Made by a program: the position numbers and the translations under genes
Shown here: positions 2,043 to 52,507 of the stretch, piece after piece
How the letters are laid out: every line of letters begins with the position of its first letter
How positions within the stretch are numbered: the first letter of the stretch is position 1
The notes under the pieces: model-generated
Told to the model about the DNA's origin: nothing
Seen by the model: only the letters and a program-made list of their open reading frames with translations
The model's database searches: none
Assembly (NCBI RefSeq): GCF_048268965.1
Contig: NZ_JBLWUK010000015.1
Coordinates: 14,575-78,574, forward strand
Length of the DNA: 64,000 nt
Direction: 5' to 3'
DNA from: Oceanisphaera sp.
GTDB taxonomy: Bacteria; Pseudomonadota; Gammaproteobacteria; Enterobacterales; Aeromonadaceae

Positions 2043-5000
2043 TTACACCTTTTCGACGTTGACTAAAAAGGACTTGAACTCGGGTGTTTGCGAGTTGCCA
2101 TCCCCCACCGAAGGGGTGAGCGTATTGGCCAAAAAGCCGGGTTGGGTTACACCCACAAAGCCCCAGTGAATGGGAATACCGATGTGGTGCACCCGCTTGC
2201 CGTCGATATCCAGACCACGGATCCGCTTGGTAACCACCGCCTTGGCTTTGATGTAACCACGGTTGGAAGACACCTTGACCATGTCTCCCTGGTCAATGCG
2301 CAGCTCTTTCGCCAGCTCGGCCCCAATTTCAACGAACTGTTCCGGCTGAATGATGCTGTTGAGCAGCACATGTTTGCTCCAGTAGTGGAAGTGCTCGGTC
2401 AGGCGATAGGTGGTGCCCACATAGGGGAACTGGTCCGCCTTGCCAAACTCGGCCTTGTCATCATCAAACAGACGGGCCGCCGGGTTGCTGGTCGCCTTGT
2501 CATTGTCTTTAAACAAGGGGTTATAACCCAGTGGCGTTTCGAAAGGCTCGTAGTGAGTGGGGAAGGGGCCTTCGGCCATGCCACCGCGGGCAAAAAAGCG
2601 CGCCACGCCCTCGGGGTTCATGATAAAGGGACCCATACCCTCACCCGGTGCCTCGTCTGCCTTATAGTCGGGCACATCGGCTCCGGTCCACTTGCTGCCA
2701 TTCCAGTGAATGAGCGAGCGGCTGGGGTCGAACGGATTCCCCTGACTATCACATGAGGCGCGGTTATACATGACGCGGCGGTTGGCCGGCCATGCCCATG
2801 CCCAGTTCAGCGTCTGACCTATGCCGGTGGGGTCACTGCTGTCCCGACGCGCCATCATGTTGCCTTCCTGGGTCCAGGAGCCGGAATAAATCCAGCAACC
2901 CCCCAGGGTCGAGCCGTCGTCCCGCATTTCGCCAAAGCCGGCCAACTGCTCGCCGGCCTTGCGAATGACGTTACCCCTGTTATCGGTCAAATCCCTCAGG
3001 GCCCGGCCATTCAGTTCTTTGGCCAATTCCTCGGCCGTGGGGGCGTAAGGGTTGGCGTAAGGCCAGGACAGCTGAGTGATGGGCTCGGCAAAGGTGCCGC
3101 CTTCCTGCTCGTACAGTTGGCGAATATGCTGATACAGGGTGGCCATGATCTCGATATCGGTCTTGGCTTCTCCCGGTGGCTCGGCGGCTTTCCAGTGCCA
3201 TTGCAACCAGCGTCCGGAGTTGACCAGGGTGCCGTCCTCTTCGGCAAAGCAGGAAGTCGGTAAGCGGAATACCTCGGTTTGAATGTCGGCTGAGTTGACG
3301 TCATTGGACTCGCCCGCGTTGCGCCAAAACTCGGAGGTTTCGGTCACCAGAGGGTCCATGATCACCATGAACTTAAGCTGGGACAGGGACTTGATCATCT
3401 TGGCCTTGTTGGGCGCCGCCGCCAAGGGGTTAAAGCCCTGACAGATATAGCCATTCATCTTGCCCTGGTTCATCAGCTCGTAAACCTGGAGCATGTCGTA
3501 GGGTTTATCCAGCTTGGGCAGGAAGTTGTACCCGAAGTTGTTTTCCTGACTGGCGTGCTCGCCCCACCAGGCCTTGCCCAGGCTGGCGTAGAACTTTTTG
3601 TAGTTCTGCCAGTAGCTCAGCTGGTTGTCTCGCAGCGGTTTGGGTGAACGTTTGGCAATGTACTGATCGAAGTCCTGCTCCGACTCATTGGGCAGGGTGA
3701 GGTAGCCCGGCAGCAGGTTGCTCATCAGGCCCAGATCCGTCAACCCCTGGATATTGGAGTGGCCGCGTAGCGCGTTCATGCCACCACCGGCAATCCCGAT
3801 ATTCCCCAGCAGCAGCTGCACCATGGCGCCGGTACGAATGATTTGCGAGCCAATGGAGTGCTGAGTCCAACCCAGAGCATAGAGTATGGTCCCGGCCCTG
3901 TCGGGCGTATGAGTGGAGGCCAGCAGTTCACACACCTGCAGGAATTTAGGAATGGGGGTGCCACAAACCCGCGCCACCATCTCGGGGGTATAACGGTCGT
4001 AATGTTTCTTCAACAGCTGATAAACACAGCGGGGGTGCTGCAGGCTGGGATCGGACGCGACCTTGCCCTGGGCATCCAGCTGGTAATCCCAGGAGGATTT
4101 ATCATAGCTGCGACTTTCTTCGTCATAACCGGAGAAAATACCATCGTCGAAGGCGTAGTCTTCATGGACGATGAATGACAGATCGGTGTAGTTTTTTACG
4201 TACTCATGCTGGACCTTGTTGTTATCAATCAGGTACTTGATAACCCCGCCCAGGAAGACGATATCGGTACCGGTACGAATGGGCGCATACAGATCGGCGA
4301 CCGAAGCGGAGCGGTTAAAGCGCGGATCCACCACGATCAACTTGGCGTTGTTATGTGCCTTGGCTTCCGTTACCCATTTAAAACCACAAGGATGCGCTTC
4401 GGCAGCGTTCCCTCCCATGATCAGCACGACGTCGGCATTTTTAATGTCGACCCAATGATTCGTCATAGCGCCACGGCCAAAAGTTGGGGCAAGACCTGCC
4501 ACCGTAGGACCGTGTCAAACGCGTGCTTGGTTATCGAATGCCAATATGCCCAGGGGGCGTATTACCTTGTGGGTGATATAGCCCACTTCGTTACTGCTGG
4601 CCGATGCTGCCAGCATGCCGGTAGTCAGCCAGCGGTTAACGGTTTTGCCATCGTCTGTCTGCTGAATGAAGTTCGCGTCGCGATCATCCTTCATCAATTT
4701 GGCGATGCGGCTGTAGGCCTGCTCCCAGGAGATGCGTTGCCAGGTATCCGAACCCGGAGCACGATATTCAGGATAGGTCAGGCGGTTGGGGCTGTGAATG
4801 AAGTCCACCAATCCGGCCCCTTTCGGGCACAGGGTACCGCGGTTGACCGGGTGATCATGGTCCCCTTCAATGTGCATGACGCTGGGTCTGGCATTTTTTG
4901 CGCCGTCCCCCATGCTGTAGACCAGAATGCCGCAGGCAACAGAGCAGTAAGGGCAGGTACTGCGGGTTTCTTTCGCGCGCGACAGCTTGTATTGCCGGGC

Positions 5001-5105
5001 GGCTGCCACGGCCGGGGTGGGTGTCATACCCAGCATCGCCATGCTCGAACTGGCTAGCGTTGCCCCCGTTATCTTGAAAAAATCGCGCCGACTCAGGTTA
5101 CTCAT
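2043..5105 (-). CDS. fdoG: Formate dehydrogenase-O/N catalytic alpha subunit, selenocysteine-containing (in-frame TGA at 4515-4517); ~1020 aa
   Basis: ORFs 4515..5111 and 2043..4502 are in the same frame, joined by ...[29 protein letters not shown]. Tat signal SRRDFFK and CPYCSVACG Fe-S motif. ATG at 5105 has GGAGA 6 nt upstream. fdnG is an equally possible name. Confidence 0.95.
4480..4517 (-). other. Selenocysteine UGA plus bacterial SECIS hairpin
   Basis: Minus strand reads TGA CAC GGT CCT ACG GTG GCAGGTCTTGCC CC. The GGCA/TGCC stem with a GGTCT apex starts ~11 nt after TGA, the position and form of enterobacterial fdh SECIS elements. Confidence 0.85.
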
Positions 5106-5310
5106 GGACACTCTCCTTGTAACACAAAGTTCCAGTGGTCGTTATGGTGCGATAGCTGACGACTATCGCACGTCATTAGCATTATATGGGTAACATGGAT
5201 GGGCAAGATGAATCCCATCGAGCTACCCAGTCAGCCTAGACCAGTTCATTAGGCTCCGCCATGGGTCCACCATAGCAGGGCGTAAAAGGGTTTCAAGAGG
5301 CTCTGCCTAC

Positions 5311-31345: not shown

Positions 31346-31359
31346 CGACATCCCTTGGG

Positions 31360-31727
31360 TTATACCAATCTAAGTAAAAACATGATCTATTTTAAAGCTG
31401 AGTACCAGAGGAAACAGAGTCAACTCCCACGACACGCCATAAACCCATCCCTGGGGGCTCGGGAAATGACATCCCTGTCATTTCACGGTCGTGGGAGCCG
31501 AACTCTGTTGCCTCTCCACAAGCACTGAGTTGTCTGTAGATAGCACCTACAGGTAACTCCGCAGCTTGGGGCGGATGAAGGGATCTACTCCACCGACCAT
31601 CACATGACAAGGATGTCATGTGCTTGAGCGCCACAGGGAAGTGCTTGCAGCGTGTCGGTGGAGTAGACCCTTCGTTCGGCCTTACTGAGCAGCCAAATAG
31701 ACCAGTTACTTACTCAGTTTGGTATTA
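31360..31727. mobile_element. 362-bp structured MITE-like element, copy 1
   Basis: About 97% identical to 48781-49149. Imperfect 31-bp terminal inverted repeats (24/31), TTA on both flanks, several long internal hairpins. Confidence 0.8.
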
Positions 31728-31847
31728 GGCGCAAACAGAACAAGGCAGTCAAGCTGACGCTTAACTACCCTGAAGCCGTCATGATAAAGGCCAGTTCCAT
31801 CGACAAGAACGGTGCCGATGTCTGATTGCTTGCGGCCTGTATTCGCC

Positions 31848-48685: not shown

Positions 48686-48780
48686 GTGTGCTTTCAGCAG
48701 CGCCCAGCGCCTGGCACCAAGCGCCCAGAAAAAGATACACACAGTTCCTGTAGGCCGGCGCTTTAGCGGCCGGTTCTGCG

Positions 48781-49149
48781 TTATACCAATCTAAGTAAAA
48801 ATATGATCTATTTTAAAGCTGAGTACCAGAGGAAACAGAGTCAACTCCCACGACACGCCATAAACCCATCCTTGGGGGCTCGGGAAATGACATCCCTGTC
48901 ATTTCACGGTCGTGGGAGCCGAACTCTGTTGCCTCTCCACAAGCACCGAGTTGTCTGTAGATAGCACCTACAGGCAACTCCGCAGCTTGGGGCGGATGAA
49001 GGGATCTACTCCACCGACCATCACATGACAAGGAGGTCATGTGTTTGAGCGCCACAGGGAAGTGCTTGCAGCGTGTCGGTGGAGTAGACCCTTCGTTCGG
49101 CCTTTCCAGAGCAGCTAAATAGACCAGTTACTTACTCAGTTTGGTATTA
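48781..49149. mobile_element. 363-bp structured MITE-like element, copy 2
   Basis: Same orientation as, and ~97% identical to, 31360-31727; TTA flanks at 48781-48783 and 49147-49149. Confidence 0.8.
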
Positions 49150-49317
49150 GCAGAATATGTTTTATGTCAGACCCTAATAGCTGACCGCTTTATTTTATGC
49201 CTCGCCTGTGGATTTCGTAGGGGCCGTGGCAAAATGGCTGTAAAGGTTGGATGTTTGTTCGCCATGACGCTGTTGTTGTGATGGCGGGTTTTTATAATAG
49301 TTATTTAGAGGTAACTC

Positions 49318-50091
49318 ATGCTGATAGTGGTTTCTCCTGCCAAGACACTCGATTTTGATACGCCACCGGTTATTGCCGACTTCACTCAGCCTGAGTTATT
49401 AGCCGAATCGGCGCTGTTGATCGAGCGGGCTCGCCAGCTAAGCCCGGCCGACATTGGCAAGCTGATGAAGATCAGCGACAAGCTCGCCGGGCTGAATGCC
49501 GCCCGTTTTGCCGACTGGCAGCCTGATTTTACTCCGGACAACGCCAAGCAGGCGCTTCTGGCGTTTAAAGGCGATGTGTATACCGGGCTGGATGCCGAAA
49601 GCCTGAGTCCGGCGGACTTTGCCTTTGCTCAACAACATTTTCGTATGCTGTCGGGCTTGTACGGCCTGCTGCGGCCACTGGATCTGATGCAGCCTTACCG
49701 GCTGGAGATGGGCACCAAGCTGGATAACGAGCGCGGTAAAGACCTGTATGCCTTCTGGGGGGACATTATTACCGACAAGCTCAATCAGGCTCTGGAAGAG
49801 CAGGGCGATAATGTGCTGATCAACCTGGCATCCAACGAGTACTTCAAGGCGGTTAAACCCAAGCGCCTGGCCGGACAGATTATTACCCCGGTATTCAAGG
49901 ACTGTAAGAACGGCCAGTACAAAATCATCAGCTTTTACGCCAAGAAGGCACGAGGCATGATGGCGCGTTATATTATTCAGCATCAGCTGACCGAGGTGAG
50001 CCAGCTAACCGCCTTTGACACCGCGGGTTACTACTTCGTTGAAGCCGAGTCGACCGCGACCGAGCTGGTGTTCAAGCGCGAAGAGCAGTAA
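49318..50091 (+). CDS. yaaA: Peroxide stress / DNA-binding protein YaaA
   Basis: [55 protein letters not shown]. Confidence 0.96.
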
Positions 50092-50278
50092 TGCCCTCTG
50101 GGCAGCGGTACGTTTTAAGCCATACGCAGTAAGCCAAAGGCCAACACTGGATCCGCAGGTCTGGTTTTCTGCCTTAAAGTGGACAGAGCATAGAGGCGAC
50201 AAAAGGCGGAGCGGCTCTTTAACCGACAGCGTACAGCGTATGACCTACGGCGTTTTAACGTTTTTTCGCAAAAAGTGT

Positions 50279-50305
50279 GAACCTTTTGCCCTGGGGCTGC
50301 TCTTA
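50279..50305 (+). promoter_or_regulatory. SigmaE (RpoE/AlgU)-type promoter, copy 1
   Basis: GAACCT-N16-TCTTA with an upstream A-tract. Confidence 0.65.
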
Positions 50306-50311
50306 ACTAGT

Positions 50312-50377
50312 GTGCTTACTGAATTTGAATACTCTCTCTTCTTCCTTTTTAACCGGTCCCGATGGGCCGGTTTTTTT
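50312..50377 (+). ncRNA. Candidate small RNA, copy 1 (~66 nt)
   Basis: GTGCTTACTGAATTTGAATACTCTCTCTTCTTCCTTTTTA + ACCGGTCC-CGAT-GGGCCGGT-T7 terminator; no ORF. Confidence 0.65.
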
Positions 50378-50476
50378 ATGGGGCCGGTATCGGCGGCGGC
50401 ACGTCACTGCGTCTTCGGCCAAAACAGGGCCTTGAGCTAAAAAAGGGCCTTTAGCCAAAAAAAAAGTAAAAAGCCG

Positions 50477-50503
50477 GAACCTTTTGCTCCGGCTGTGCTC
50501 TTA
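50477..50503 (+). promoter_or_regulatory. SigmaE-type promoter, copy 2
   Basis: (G)GAACCT-N16-TCTTA; the spacer has diverged from copy 1 while the boxes are unchanged. Confidence 0.65.
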
Positions 50504-50509
50504 ATGAGT

Positions 50510-50574
50510 ATGCTTACTGAATTTGAATACTCTCTCTTCTTCATTTTGACCGGTCCCGATGGGCCGGTTTTTTT
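50510..50574 (+). ncRNA. Candidate small RNA, copy 2 (~65 nt)
   Basis: ATGCTTACTGAATTTGAATACTCTCTCTTCTTCATTTTG + the same terminator hairpin and T7. Confidence 0.65.
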
Positions 50575-50690
50575 ATGGGGTACCGGTACTTTTTTATGAG
50601 GTACCGCTACCGGCGGTGGCGCATAACGGCGCTTTCAGCCTAAAAAAGTGCCATCAGATCAAAAAATAGCCATTGGCCAAAAAAAAACCG

Positions 50691-50717
50691 GAACCTTTCG
50701 GTCCGGCCGTGCTCTTA
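50691..50717 (+). promoter_or_regulatory. SigmaE-type promoter, copy 3
   Basis: (G)GAACCT-N16-TCTTA preceded by an A9 tract. Confidence 0.65.
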
Positions 50718-50723
50718 CCTAGT

Positions 50724-50786
50724 GTGCTTACTGAATTTTACTACTCTCTTCTTCTTTTTGACCGGTCCTGATGGGCCGGTTTTTTT
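50724..50786 (+). ncRNA. Candidate small RNA, copy 3 (~63 nt)
   Basis: GTGCTTACTGAATTTTACTACTCTCTTCTTCTTTTTG + ACCGGTCC-TGAT-GGGCCGGT-T7; the hairpin differs from copies 1-2 only in the loop. Confidence 0.65.
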
Positions 50787-50819
50787 ATCGGCACTTTTTT
50801 AGCGGTACTGTGGGGCGGA

Positions 50820-50981
50820 TTATTGCCCCCACAGGCTTTTGGCCTGATCCACTTTGCGCCGTCCCGGGCTTTGCATGCGGCGTTCCTGATCTTCCGGGGG
50901 CCAGCGCAGCAGATCGCGTCGGTCCAGAATGCGTCGTCTTTGCTGTTGGCGCCGCTCGGGGCCCGAATAATGTTTTAGCAT
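50820..50981 (-). CDS. Unannotated 53-aa arginine-rich protein with YSGPERR and repeated DRR/ERR motifs
   Basis: Below the ORF-track cutoff. Manual translation: MLKHYSGPERRQQQRRRILDRRDLLRWPPEDQERRMQSPGRRKVDQAKSLWGQ*. AAGGCGG lies upstream of the ATG. Confidence 0.7.
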   Translation of the reverse strand: MLKHYSGPERRQQQRRRILDRRDLLRWPPEDQERRMQSPGRRKVDQAKSLWGQ

Positions 50982-51157: not shown

Positions 51158-52507
51158 TTATTCGTTATTATCACTGGCTGCGGGTTTGCGACCGGGCTTT
51201 TTCGCCTGGCTGGCCTCGGCTTTACCCGTTGCCCACTTCGGCTTGCCCTTGCTCTTGGTGTCTCTTAAACGCACTTTCTCTTTCTTGACCGGCGCCAGCT
51301 TTTTCTTGCTCTTGCGTTCGCCGTCTTTTTTCTTGCGTGTCGTTACCCGGGCTTCTTTATGCTGCGGCCTTAGCCCCTCGATAAAGCGACGCTTCAGCGG
51401 CTCTTCGGTGTATTTTTCCACTTTCACCAGCAATGGCATGTCGTGGGCTTCAACCAGGCTGATGGCGGTGCCTTTTTGTCCGGCACGACCGGTACGGCCG
51501 ATACGATGCACATACACATCGGCGGTACGCGGCATATCATAGTTAATGACGTGGCTGACCTGTGGCAAGTCGATACCGCGAGAGGCCACATCGGTCGCCA
51601 CCAGAATATTGACTCGGCCAATACGGAAACGCCCCAGGGCTTCGTTACGCTTTTCCTGCTCCATTTCACCGCGCAGCCAGGCATTGTGCAGGCCTTCTTG
51701 CTGTAGCCGGCTGGCCAGCTCCATCAGGCGCTCGCGGGTTTTCACGAAGATGATGCTGCGAGTGACCTCGGGCTGGCGCAACAAGCTGACCAGCAGCGCA
51801 AATTTATGCTCCGGGTTATCAGCCATGTGAACCCACTGATTGATTTTCTTGCGCTCGCTGCGTGGCGGCTCGGCGCTGACCTCGACCGGGTCTTTCAGCA
51901 AATCGGCGGCAAACTTCATCAAGCCGTGGCCTTCAAGGGTGGCCGAAAACAGCATGGTCTGGCGGCGCCAGCGGGCCTCGGCGGCAATGCGGTCTACTTC
52001 TTTGATAAAGCCCATGTCCAGCATGCGGTCGGCTTCATCCAGCACCAGCATTTCGATGTCGCGACAGTCAAACGACTCTTCCTCAATGTATTGCAGCAGT
52101 CGTCCCGGGGTTGCCACCACTATGTCCGTGGTTTTGGTCAGGGCCGGCAGGTGCTGACTTTCGTGCACACCGCCGGTGATCACCTCAACGCGCAGCTTGG
52201 TGCCTTTGGCGATGGCAATGGCATCGTTGCCTATTTGCATCGCCAGTTCGCGGGTGGGCGTTAAAATCAGAATACGGGCAGGGCCCGCCTGGCGGCGTGG
52301 AAAGTCCAGCAGGTGTTGGCAAATAGGCACTAAAAAAGCCGCCGTTTTGCCGGTGCCGGTAGGGGCAGAGGCCATTATGTCCCTTCCGCTCATGGCTTCG
52401 GGGATAACTTGGCTCTGAATGGTGGTCGGTTTTGCATAGCCCATGTCGGTCAATGCGCGGACCAGGATGGGATCCAGTTCCAGTTGCTCGAAGGTCATAC
52501 TGCTCAT
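51158..52507 (-). CDS. srmB: DEAD-box RNA helicase SrmB
   Basis: APTGTGKT, ILILTPTRELA, DEADRMLDMGF, RWRRQTMLFSATL, HRIGRTGRAG, Lys-rich tail; divergent from yfiC. Confidence 0.95.
   Translation of the reverse strand: MSSMTFEQLELDPILVRALTDMGYAKPTTIQSQVIPEAMSGRDIMASAPTGTGKTAAFLVPICQHLLDFPRRQAGPARILILTPTRELAMQIGNDAIAIAKGTKLRVEVITGGVHESQHLPALTKTTDIVVATPGRLLQYIEEESFDCRDIEMLVLDEADRMLDMGFIKEVDRIAAEARWRRQTMLFSATLEGHGLMKFAADLLKDPVEVSAEPPRSERKKINQWVHMADNPEHKFALLVSLLRQPEVTRSIIFVKTRERLMELASRLQQEGLHNAWLRGEMEQEKRNEALGRFRIGRVNILVATDVASRGIDLPQVSHVINYDMPRTADVYVHRIGRTGRAGQKGTAISLVEAHDMPLLVKVEKYTEEPLKRRFIEGLRPQHKEARVTTRKKKDGERKSKKKLAPVKKEKVRLRDTKSKGKPKWATGKAEASQAKKPGRKPAASDNNE

Follow-up and report, generated by a model that had tools for sequence, protein, structure and literature searches.

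The stretch of DNA analysed here, called the window, comprises 64,000 nt of an Oceanisphaera sp. (Aeromonadaceae; contig NZ_JBLWUK010000015.1). Between yaaA and an srmB-like helicase gene, it carries three tandem units, each composed of a sigmaE-type promoter, a short body predicted to be transcribed into a small RNA (sRNA) and an intrinsic terminator. The units are new as a family and of a known kind, the sigmaE-type promoter-sRNA-terminator cassette. The best explanation, to which a probability of about 0.65 is given, is that they belong to an undescribed family of sigmaE-driven, probably Hfq-dependent, trans-acting sRNAs found in one to three tandem copies. As judged by a pattern scan of one genome per species, the family appears to be restricted to the genus.

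Repeat array and anatomy of the units

The array consists of three direct repeats (window 50270-50376, 50468-50574 and 50682-50788), with a unit-to-unit spacing of 198 and 214 bp. It is located in the interval separating yaaA (49318-50091, +) from the convergent srmB-like gene (51158-52507, -). A first-pass annotation, made from the sequence alone, had reported three units at this spacing; the same coordinates and spacing were recovered from the window sequence. On the + strand, each unit includes, in this order, an A-run, GAACCT, 16 nt, TCTTA, 6 nt, a purine, TGCTTACTGAATTT, a variable patch, a CU tract, a U-run, a hairpin and T7. The hairpin is a GC-rich stem of 9 bp, ACCGGTCC-YGAT-GGGCCGGT, directly followed by T7. 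The A-tract, GAACCT-N16-TCTTA, the 6 nt, the CU tract, the hairpin and the T7 previously listed for each unit are thus all read in the sequence. The boxes, the 5′ block and the stem are invariant, as had been stated; the CU tract is not, being 2 nt shorter in unit 3 than in units 1 and 2. The predicted start purines are G at 50312, A at 50510 and G at 50724, and the predicted bodies of units 1, 2 and 3 are 66, 65 and 63 nt long.

The elements of the units are given below. R1 is a covariance model built from unit copies. The 26 copies are those of the window and of 13 genomes of the Oceanisphaera lineage (14 genomes).

50261..50278, + strand: A/T-rich, UP-element-like stretch before the unit 1 -35 box; A-run conserved in 26/26 copies.
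50279..50305, + strand: unit 1 sigmaE-type promoter (motif), GAACCT at 50279-50284, 16-nt spacer, TCTTA at 50301-50305; conserved boxes, variable spacer.
50312..50377, + strand: predicted sRNA copy 1, 66 nt, terminator hairpin and T-run at 50351-50372; R1, 94.1 bits.
50477..50503, + strand: unit 2 sigmaE-type promoter (motif), GAACCT-N16-TCTTA.
50510..50574, + strand: predicted sRNA copy 2, 65 nt, A start, terminator-like hairpin and T-run at 50548-50569; R1, 90.4 bits.
50691..50717, + strand: unit 3 sigmaE-type promoter (motif), GAACCT-N16-TCTTA.
50724..50786, + strand: predicted sRNA copy 3, 63 nt, variant linker UUUUACUA, terminator-like hairpin and T-run at 50760-50781; R1, 83.6 bits.
50437..50476 and 50640..50690, + strand: phased A-tracts upstream of units 2 and 3 (repeat family D2); five A6-8 tracts (CTAAAAAAGnGCC...) in 50419-50466 and 50621-50688, period of about 18-19 bp.

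The phased A-tracts upstream of units 2 and 3 may correspond to curved DNA or to an extended UP region.

The repeat array, with all its motifs, is real and non-random. The 14-mer TGCTTACTGAATTT has three exact matches in the 64 kb (50313, 50511 and 50725), for a chance expectation of about 0.24 matches even when 2 mismatches are permitted. The pattern GAACNT-N15-17-TCNNA matches the three unit promoters and three further sites of the window, the latter all within genes. Separate unitigs of X1, an independent run of the same organism, join units 1 and 2 and units 2 and 3 at a depth of about 400x, and words common to several units are found at two to three times this depth; the triplication therefore does not stem from the assembly. 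X5, a related strain sequenced in the same study, lacks about 590 bp relative to window 50091-50682 and has only one unit, indicating that the copy number is polymorphic among close relatives. The qualification of the units as multicopy, made in the first-pass annotation, is thus right for the three copies of the window; it does not extend to X5, and the number varies from one to three among species.

Promoter class

According to Rhodius et al. (2006, PMC1312014), the E. coli sigmaE promoter is GGAACTTTT (GGAACTT) with a TCAAA-type -10 and a strongly preferred length of 16 nt; its discriminator has 5/6 nt, transcription starts at a purine and an upstream region is A/T-rich and UP-like. By motif comparison with this E. 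coli consensus, every element is present in the units. The promoters of two E. coli sRNA genes, both with an N16 spacer and a T/A-run upstream, are given below with that of unit 1.

E. coli rybB: GAACTT-TTCCGCAGGGCATCAG-TCTTA-ATTAGT-G(+1)CCACUGC.
E. coli micA: GAACTC-TTTGTTCCCAGGCGAG-TCTGA-GTATAT-G(+1)AAAGACG.
Unit 1: GAACCT-TTTGCCCTGGGGCTGC-TCTTA-ACTAGT-G(+1)UGCUUACUG.

The rybB and unit 1 promoters are almost superimposable (GAACTT-N16-TCTTA-ATTAGT-G and GAACCT-N16-TCTTA-ACTAGT-G, respectively), and the end of the rybB promoter given at first reading, TCTTAATTAGT, matches the E. coli rybB sequence. In the majority of Oceanisphaera copies, the corresponding segment is TCTGA-ATAGGT-G, with the same -10 as micA. 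The assignment to the sigmaE type made at first reading is consistent with these comparisons: the boxes, the 16-nt spacer, the 6-nt discriminator and the purine start match rybB, micA and the 2006 consensus. No sigma70-like promoter was found on the + strand of the window region or of the loci of two other species.

Distribution, conservation footprint and copy history

Relatives were sought in one genome per species (185,579 species) with the pattern TGCTTACTGAATTT-N3-8-CTCTCT. The scan yielded 13 loci belonging to Oceanisphaera species or to an Aeromonadales metagenome-assembled genome (MAG) and five unrelated loci. The 26 true copies score 68-97 bits with R1 and the five unrelated loci score 22 bits or less, so the latter are chance matches. 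The species of the window is outside the scanned representatives; the window proteins are about 93% identical to those of O. marina and O. ostreae. A scan of metagenomes with a pattern of the promoter and 5′ end gave 12 matches, all due to chance according to the covariance model, and thus did not extend the family outside Oceanisphaera. Scans for the unit in viral contigs, plasmids and E. coli genomes gave zero matches, and hence no sign of a mobile element.

Each species has one, two or three tandem copies per locus, for instance one in O. litoralis DSM 15406 and three in O. ostreae. The gene order is the same in all loci: pilT-pilU-yaaA-units-small open reading frame (ORF) (-)-srmB (-)-yfiC-brnQ. 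In a neighbour-joining tree of the promoters and bodies, proximal and distal copies of related species form separate orthologous groups, which indicates that duplicates have been kept through speciation. Duplications specific to a lineage are also seen in this tree, for O. ostreae, for O. marina and for units 2 and 3 of the window.

One Oceanisphaera MAG (L005, 168-4130) has about 4 kb between the small ORF and its single sRNA copy, which lie near each other in the other species. This is an insertion between the two.

Across the 26 copies, the information content is near maximal over the A-run directly upstream of the -35 box and over GAACCTTT, low across the 13 following spacer nt, high again across C-TC-T-n-A (CTCTnA) and low in the 6-nt discriminator. 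It is near maximal again over the first 20 or so transcribed nt, the CTCTC-TTCTTC tract, the U-run and the hairpin, and drops to background right past the T-run. The lengths of the spacer (16 nt) and of the discriminator (6 nt) are constant in 26/26 copies. The -35 arm is invariant and its palindromic partner within the spacer is variable; conservation therefore bears on the sequence of the box and not on pairing. The bodies measure 63-72 nt and carry indels of 1, 2, 4 and 5 nt. As bodies of this size differ by indels that are not multiples of three, they include no conserved ORF and the unit is non-coding. Such a footprint is the signature of purifying selection acting on a promoter, on a non-coding transcript and on a terminator. 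The selection on functional transcription units proposed at first reading is thus borne out over 26 copies and 14 genomes.

Predicted RNA

Folding of the predicted RNAs gives one hairpin per molecule, at the 3′ end (-14.6 to -16.3 kcal/mol; z = -2.6 to -4.1), and leaves the 5′ 36-40 nt unpaired; the consensus fold is identical. The terminator helix is paired in 96% of alignment cells, with a few compensatory changes (C-G to U-A). Two single-stranded blocks are conserved: nt 1-15 (GUGCUUACUGAAUUU, 26 copies) and the CU tract (CUCUC-UUCUUC). The sole variable patch of the body, nt 16-21, lies between these blocks (GAAUAC, GAAUUC, GAAGAC, UACUAC and others). The usual Hfq-binding layout is a U-rich stretch beside a GC hairpin with a U7 tail. 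The predicted RNAs have a U-rich stretch, a GC-rich terminator hairpin and a U7 tail, a layout compatible with Hfq-dependent trans-acting sRNAs. No + strand gene is found downstream of the units, which are therefore not leaders.

Comparison with described RNA families

A search against Rfam 15 at gathering level, covering the window region and the loci of five other Oceanisphaera, gave no match. Gathering thresholds are 40 bits for RybB (RF00110), 41 bits for MicA (RF00078) and 40 bits for OmrA-B (RF00079). The positive controls, E. coli RybB and MicA, were recovered with 105.3 and 83.9 bits, respectively. The RybB and MicA models have no match in the region, also at a permissive E<=10. Published work includes no paper on an Oceanisphaera sRNA or on the seed string. 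The RNA thus appears undescribed, as had been proposed at first reading: no Rfam family matches it and no paper describes its body.

Some candidate relationships were rejected. OmrA-B scores 16.8-20.7 bits for a threshold of 40; the aligned part owes this score to the terminator and takes in promoter bases. The other permissive matches (RyhB on the minus strand, L20 leader, Burkholderia sRNAs) are sub-threshold and driven by the terminator or by T/A runs. Aligned locally with RybB or MicA, the body does no better than shuffled sequence.

By its anatomy, the predicted RNA would be a regulator of the RybB/MicA/MicV type without being a member of those families. Regarding the class of sigmaE-dependent trans-acting sRNAs, the consensus promoter and a short stand-alone non-coding unit with an intrinsic terminator are both present in silico. 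In addition to its promoter, the unit has in common with rybB an A/T-rich upstream region, a short RNA with a conserved single-stranded 5′ end from +1, an intrinsic terminator and a stand-alone intergenic location. However, the bodies are unrelated: the 5′ seed of RybB is GCCACUGCUUUU / CRCUGCUUUU, whereas the Oceanisphaera copies have GUGCUUACUGAAUUU, and the Oceanisphaera RNA is devoid of the internal hairpin of RybB. The rybB gene is single copy and located between ybjL and rcdA (ybjK), whereas the one to three tandem Oceanisphaera units are located between yaaA and the small ORF-srmB pair in 14/14 genomes.

MicV (Vcr089) of V. cholerae is a 68-nt, sigmaE- and Hfq-dependent RNA with a seed at its 5′ end; in this species it is one of two redundant sigmaE sRNAs, the other being VrrA, and the seed CRCUGCUUUU is common to RybB, MicV and VrrA (Peschek et al. 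2019, PMC6694218). The Oceanisphaera units resemble MicV and VrrA in size, promoter class, 5′ seed layout and the idea of redundant copies. MicV is set apart by its seed, absent in Oceanisphaera, and by its locus, vc2640-argH. The sigmaE promoter of micA has the same architecture (GAACTC-N16-TCTGA-GTATAT-G), but there is no covariance-model match and no significant sequence similarity, and the micA locus is luxS-gshA. OmrA/OmrB, PrrF1/2 and Qrr1-5 are near-identical sRNA genes that are kept side by side or in several copies, their seeds being conserved and their flanks divergent. The Oceanisphaera units share these three features. The regulators differ: OmpR, Fur and sigma54/LuxO control these three groups, respectively, and not sigmaE.

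Convergent small ORF and minus strand

Features located on the minus strand and flanking genes are the following.

50472..50494, - strand: hairpin and T-run over the unit 2 -35 box and spacer; minus-strand fold of -15.8 kcal/mol.
50685..50704, - strand: hairpin and T-run over the unit 3 -35 box and spacer; terminator-like site scan and fold.
50820..50981, - strand: conserved convergent small ORF, 53 aa, Arg-rich; tblastn and codon-position substitutions.
51121-51090, - strand: own terminator of the srmB-like gene (terminator-like hairpin).
49318..50091, + strand: yaaA, peroxide stress protein family, upstream flank; Pfam PF03883, E = 2e-94.
51158..52507, - strand: srmB-like DEAD-box helicase gene, downstream flank; Pfam DEAD and Helicase_C domains.

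In all Oceanisphaera loci extending that far, the small ORF (MLKHYSGPERRQQQRRRILDRRDLLRW...) separates the sRNA cluster from srmB. By tblastn, it has 60-87% identity in 11 loci. It is intact at 52-53 codons, and substitutions at the first, second and third codon positions number 58, 38 and 152; this third-position excess indicates that it is coding. It has no Pfam match. A sigma70-like promoter (TTAACA-16-TATGCT) is found at 51004-50977 (-).

The stop codon of the small ORF and the sRNA terminator are, in most species, no more than a few tens of nt apart. In most units, the palindrome formed by the -35 box and the spacer reads, with the upstream A-run, as an intrinsic terminator on the minus strand. 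In every species, the copy nearest srmB has the strongest of these minus-strand hairpins (-13 to -17 kcal/mol), with a U-run after it. A minus-strand transcript leaving the small ORF of the window would meet its first terminator-like site inside the unit 3 promoter (50704-50685), and the same geometry is found in O. litoralis and O. sediminis (L019, 6941-6960, and L018, 5163-5176). As this site lies beyond the distal sRNA gene, the mRNA of the small ORF may run antisense through that gene. Such run-through may be a mere insulation of convergent units or part of an antisense/sponge circuit.

Proposed function and rival explanations

Each unit would be an independent gene for a 63-66-nt non-coding RNA, transcribed from an RpoE-type promoter (sigmaE, extracytoplasmic function (ECF) group ECF02) and ending at its own intrinsic terminator. 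Release of sigmaE would lead these RNAs to accumulate, and they would serve the envelope stress response as a non-coding arm. They would pair, by one or both conserved blocks, with the translation-initiation regions of envelope-protein mRNAs and thereby repress them. The one to three tandem copies would set the dose and perhaps add slightly different specificities. From the anatomy, the conservation and the promoter motif, we infer transcription, sigmaE dependence, Hfq binding and a target class, the last by analogy with the known sigmaE sRNAs.

Several points weigh against this explanation. In Rhodius et al. (2006, PMC1312014), the promoter model built for E. coli did not hold for gamma-proteobacteria at a greater distance, in which sigmaE specificity drifts. 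The 64-kb window has no second sigmaE-type intergenic promoter that could serve as comparator; rpoE is outside the window and the region upstream of its ygiM-like gene has no sigmaE-type motif. Because of this drift in sigmaE specificity and of the missing in-genome comparator, the promoter class, although strong, is motif-based. The body was found, in agreement with the first-pass annotation, to be devoid of the RybB/MicV seed: CRCUGCUUUU is absent and UGCUU alone is present, which makes repression of outer-membrane proteins an analogy and not a finding. Covariation in the terminator is weak, as the helix hardly varies. The public sequencing runs that include the locus are genome-project-like contig sets, with no RNA-seq run among them. 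In RNAduplex comparisons with about 50 translation-initiation regions of the 64-kb window, the candidate pairings are within background. A scan of the same regions for exact complements gave only two of 8 nt, neither in an envelope gene.

The units, or at least the srmB-proximal copy, could act mainly in cis, as an antisense, sponge or transcriptional-interference pair with the 3′ untranslated region (3′UTR) of the small ORF, which would extend through unit 3 and so be fully complementary to the sRNA. This proposal, which is unlikely, draws on the position of the first minus-strand terminator-like site after the small ORF, inside the unit 3 promoter, on the same geometry in O. litoralis and O. 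sediminis, on the hairpin being strongest in the distal copy of each species, and on the small ORF being a genuine conserved gene whose stop is near the sRNA terminator in most species. However, the yaaA-proximal copies are distant from the ORF and conserved equally, and the small protein, being hydrophilic and rich in Arg, does not resemble type I toxins. A sigmaE-type promoter, single-stranded conserved blocks and one to three near-identical copies also suit a trans-acting RNA. An elaborate form of this proposal, in which the 3′UTR would be a perfect anti-sRNA of the distal copy and a near-perfect one of the others and would act as a sponge or mutual-exclusion switch gating an envelope-stress sRNA pool whose seed is unrelated to CRCUGCUUUU, is doubtful. 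The units could also be real sRNA genes controlled by another sigma factor, either another ECF sigma with a GAAC-type -35 or sigma70, and be unrelated to envelope stress. AAC-containing -35 boxes are used by many ECF sigmas, and the window provides no sigmaE promoter for comparison. This is nevertheless quite improbable, since GGAACYTT, 16 nt, TCTNA, 6 nt and a purine correspond box for box to the validated E. coli sigmaE sRNA promoters and no TTGACA/TATAAT-like promoter was found on the + strand.

Hairpins with T-runs on both strands and phased A-tracts would be expected if the array were untranscribed structural DNA between convergent genes, such as a terminator array, curved A-tract DNA or a repeat resembling repetitive extragenic palindromes or miniature inverted-repeat transposable elements (MITEs). 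However, conservation is strongest in a segment of about 35 nt that is unpaired and separates the boxes from the hairpin, and an array of terminators would have no use for this segment. In addition, srmB already has its own terminator, and the units occupy one fixed locus per genome with no further copy in the 64 kb, in plasmids or in viral contigs; this possibility is thus very remote. The last proposal, that the units encode a leaderless micro-peptide (e.g. MLTEFE...), is hardly credible. It takes into account the GTG or ATG at the predicted +1 and, in some species, a 13-codon frame with a TGA right before the hairpin. However, neither the frame nor the stop is conserved, the body has 1-, 2-, 4- and 5-nt indels, the frame crosses the terminator in the window copies and a Shine-Dalgarno sequence is absent. 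A family of sigmaE-driven, trans-acting sRNAs thus is the preferred explanation.

Other observations in the window

An intergenic element of about 375 nt is present in two copies that are 98% identical (window ~31356-31728 and ~48777-49150). It has short inverted-repeat ends (TTATACCAA...TTGGTATTA), strong internal inverted repeats and no gathering-level Rfam match. One of the copies lies in the spacer between pilU and yaaA. As this spacer is only about 66 nt long in O. pacifica (L003), the element looks recently inserted; it would be MITE-like or a structured RNA.

A SECIS_3 element (80 bits; window 4462-4520, -) is located at the junction of ORFs 4515-5111 and 2043-4502, in a formate-dehydrogenase-like gene. 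This location suggests that the two ORFs form a single selenocysteine-containing gene whose UGA is read through.

Significance

sigmaE sRNAs constitute the repressing arm of the envelope stress response and are characterised in few lineages (RybB, MicA and MicL in enterics; MicV and VrrA in Vibrio). The units described here provide a clean and comparatively well-supported candidate from Aeromonadaceae, with a promoter near-identical to that of rybB and a different seed. The model R1 and the alignment of the copies (A3) could be the seed of a new RNA family entry. The variable number of tandem copies, from one to three, is a natural series for the study of dosage and of paralogue divergence. 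The family would test, outside enterics and vibrios, the proposal that sigmaE sRNAs are recognisable by a shared seed (PMC6694218), and it would show how the non-coding arm of the regulon is replaced in evolution.

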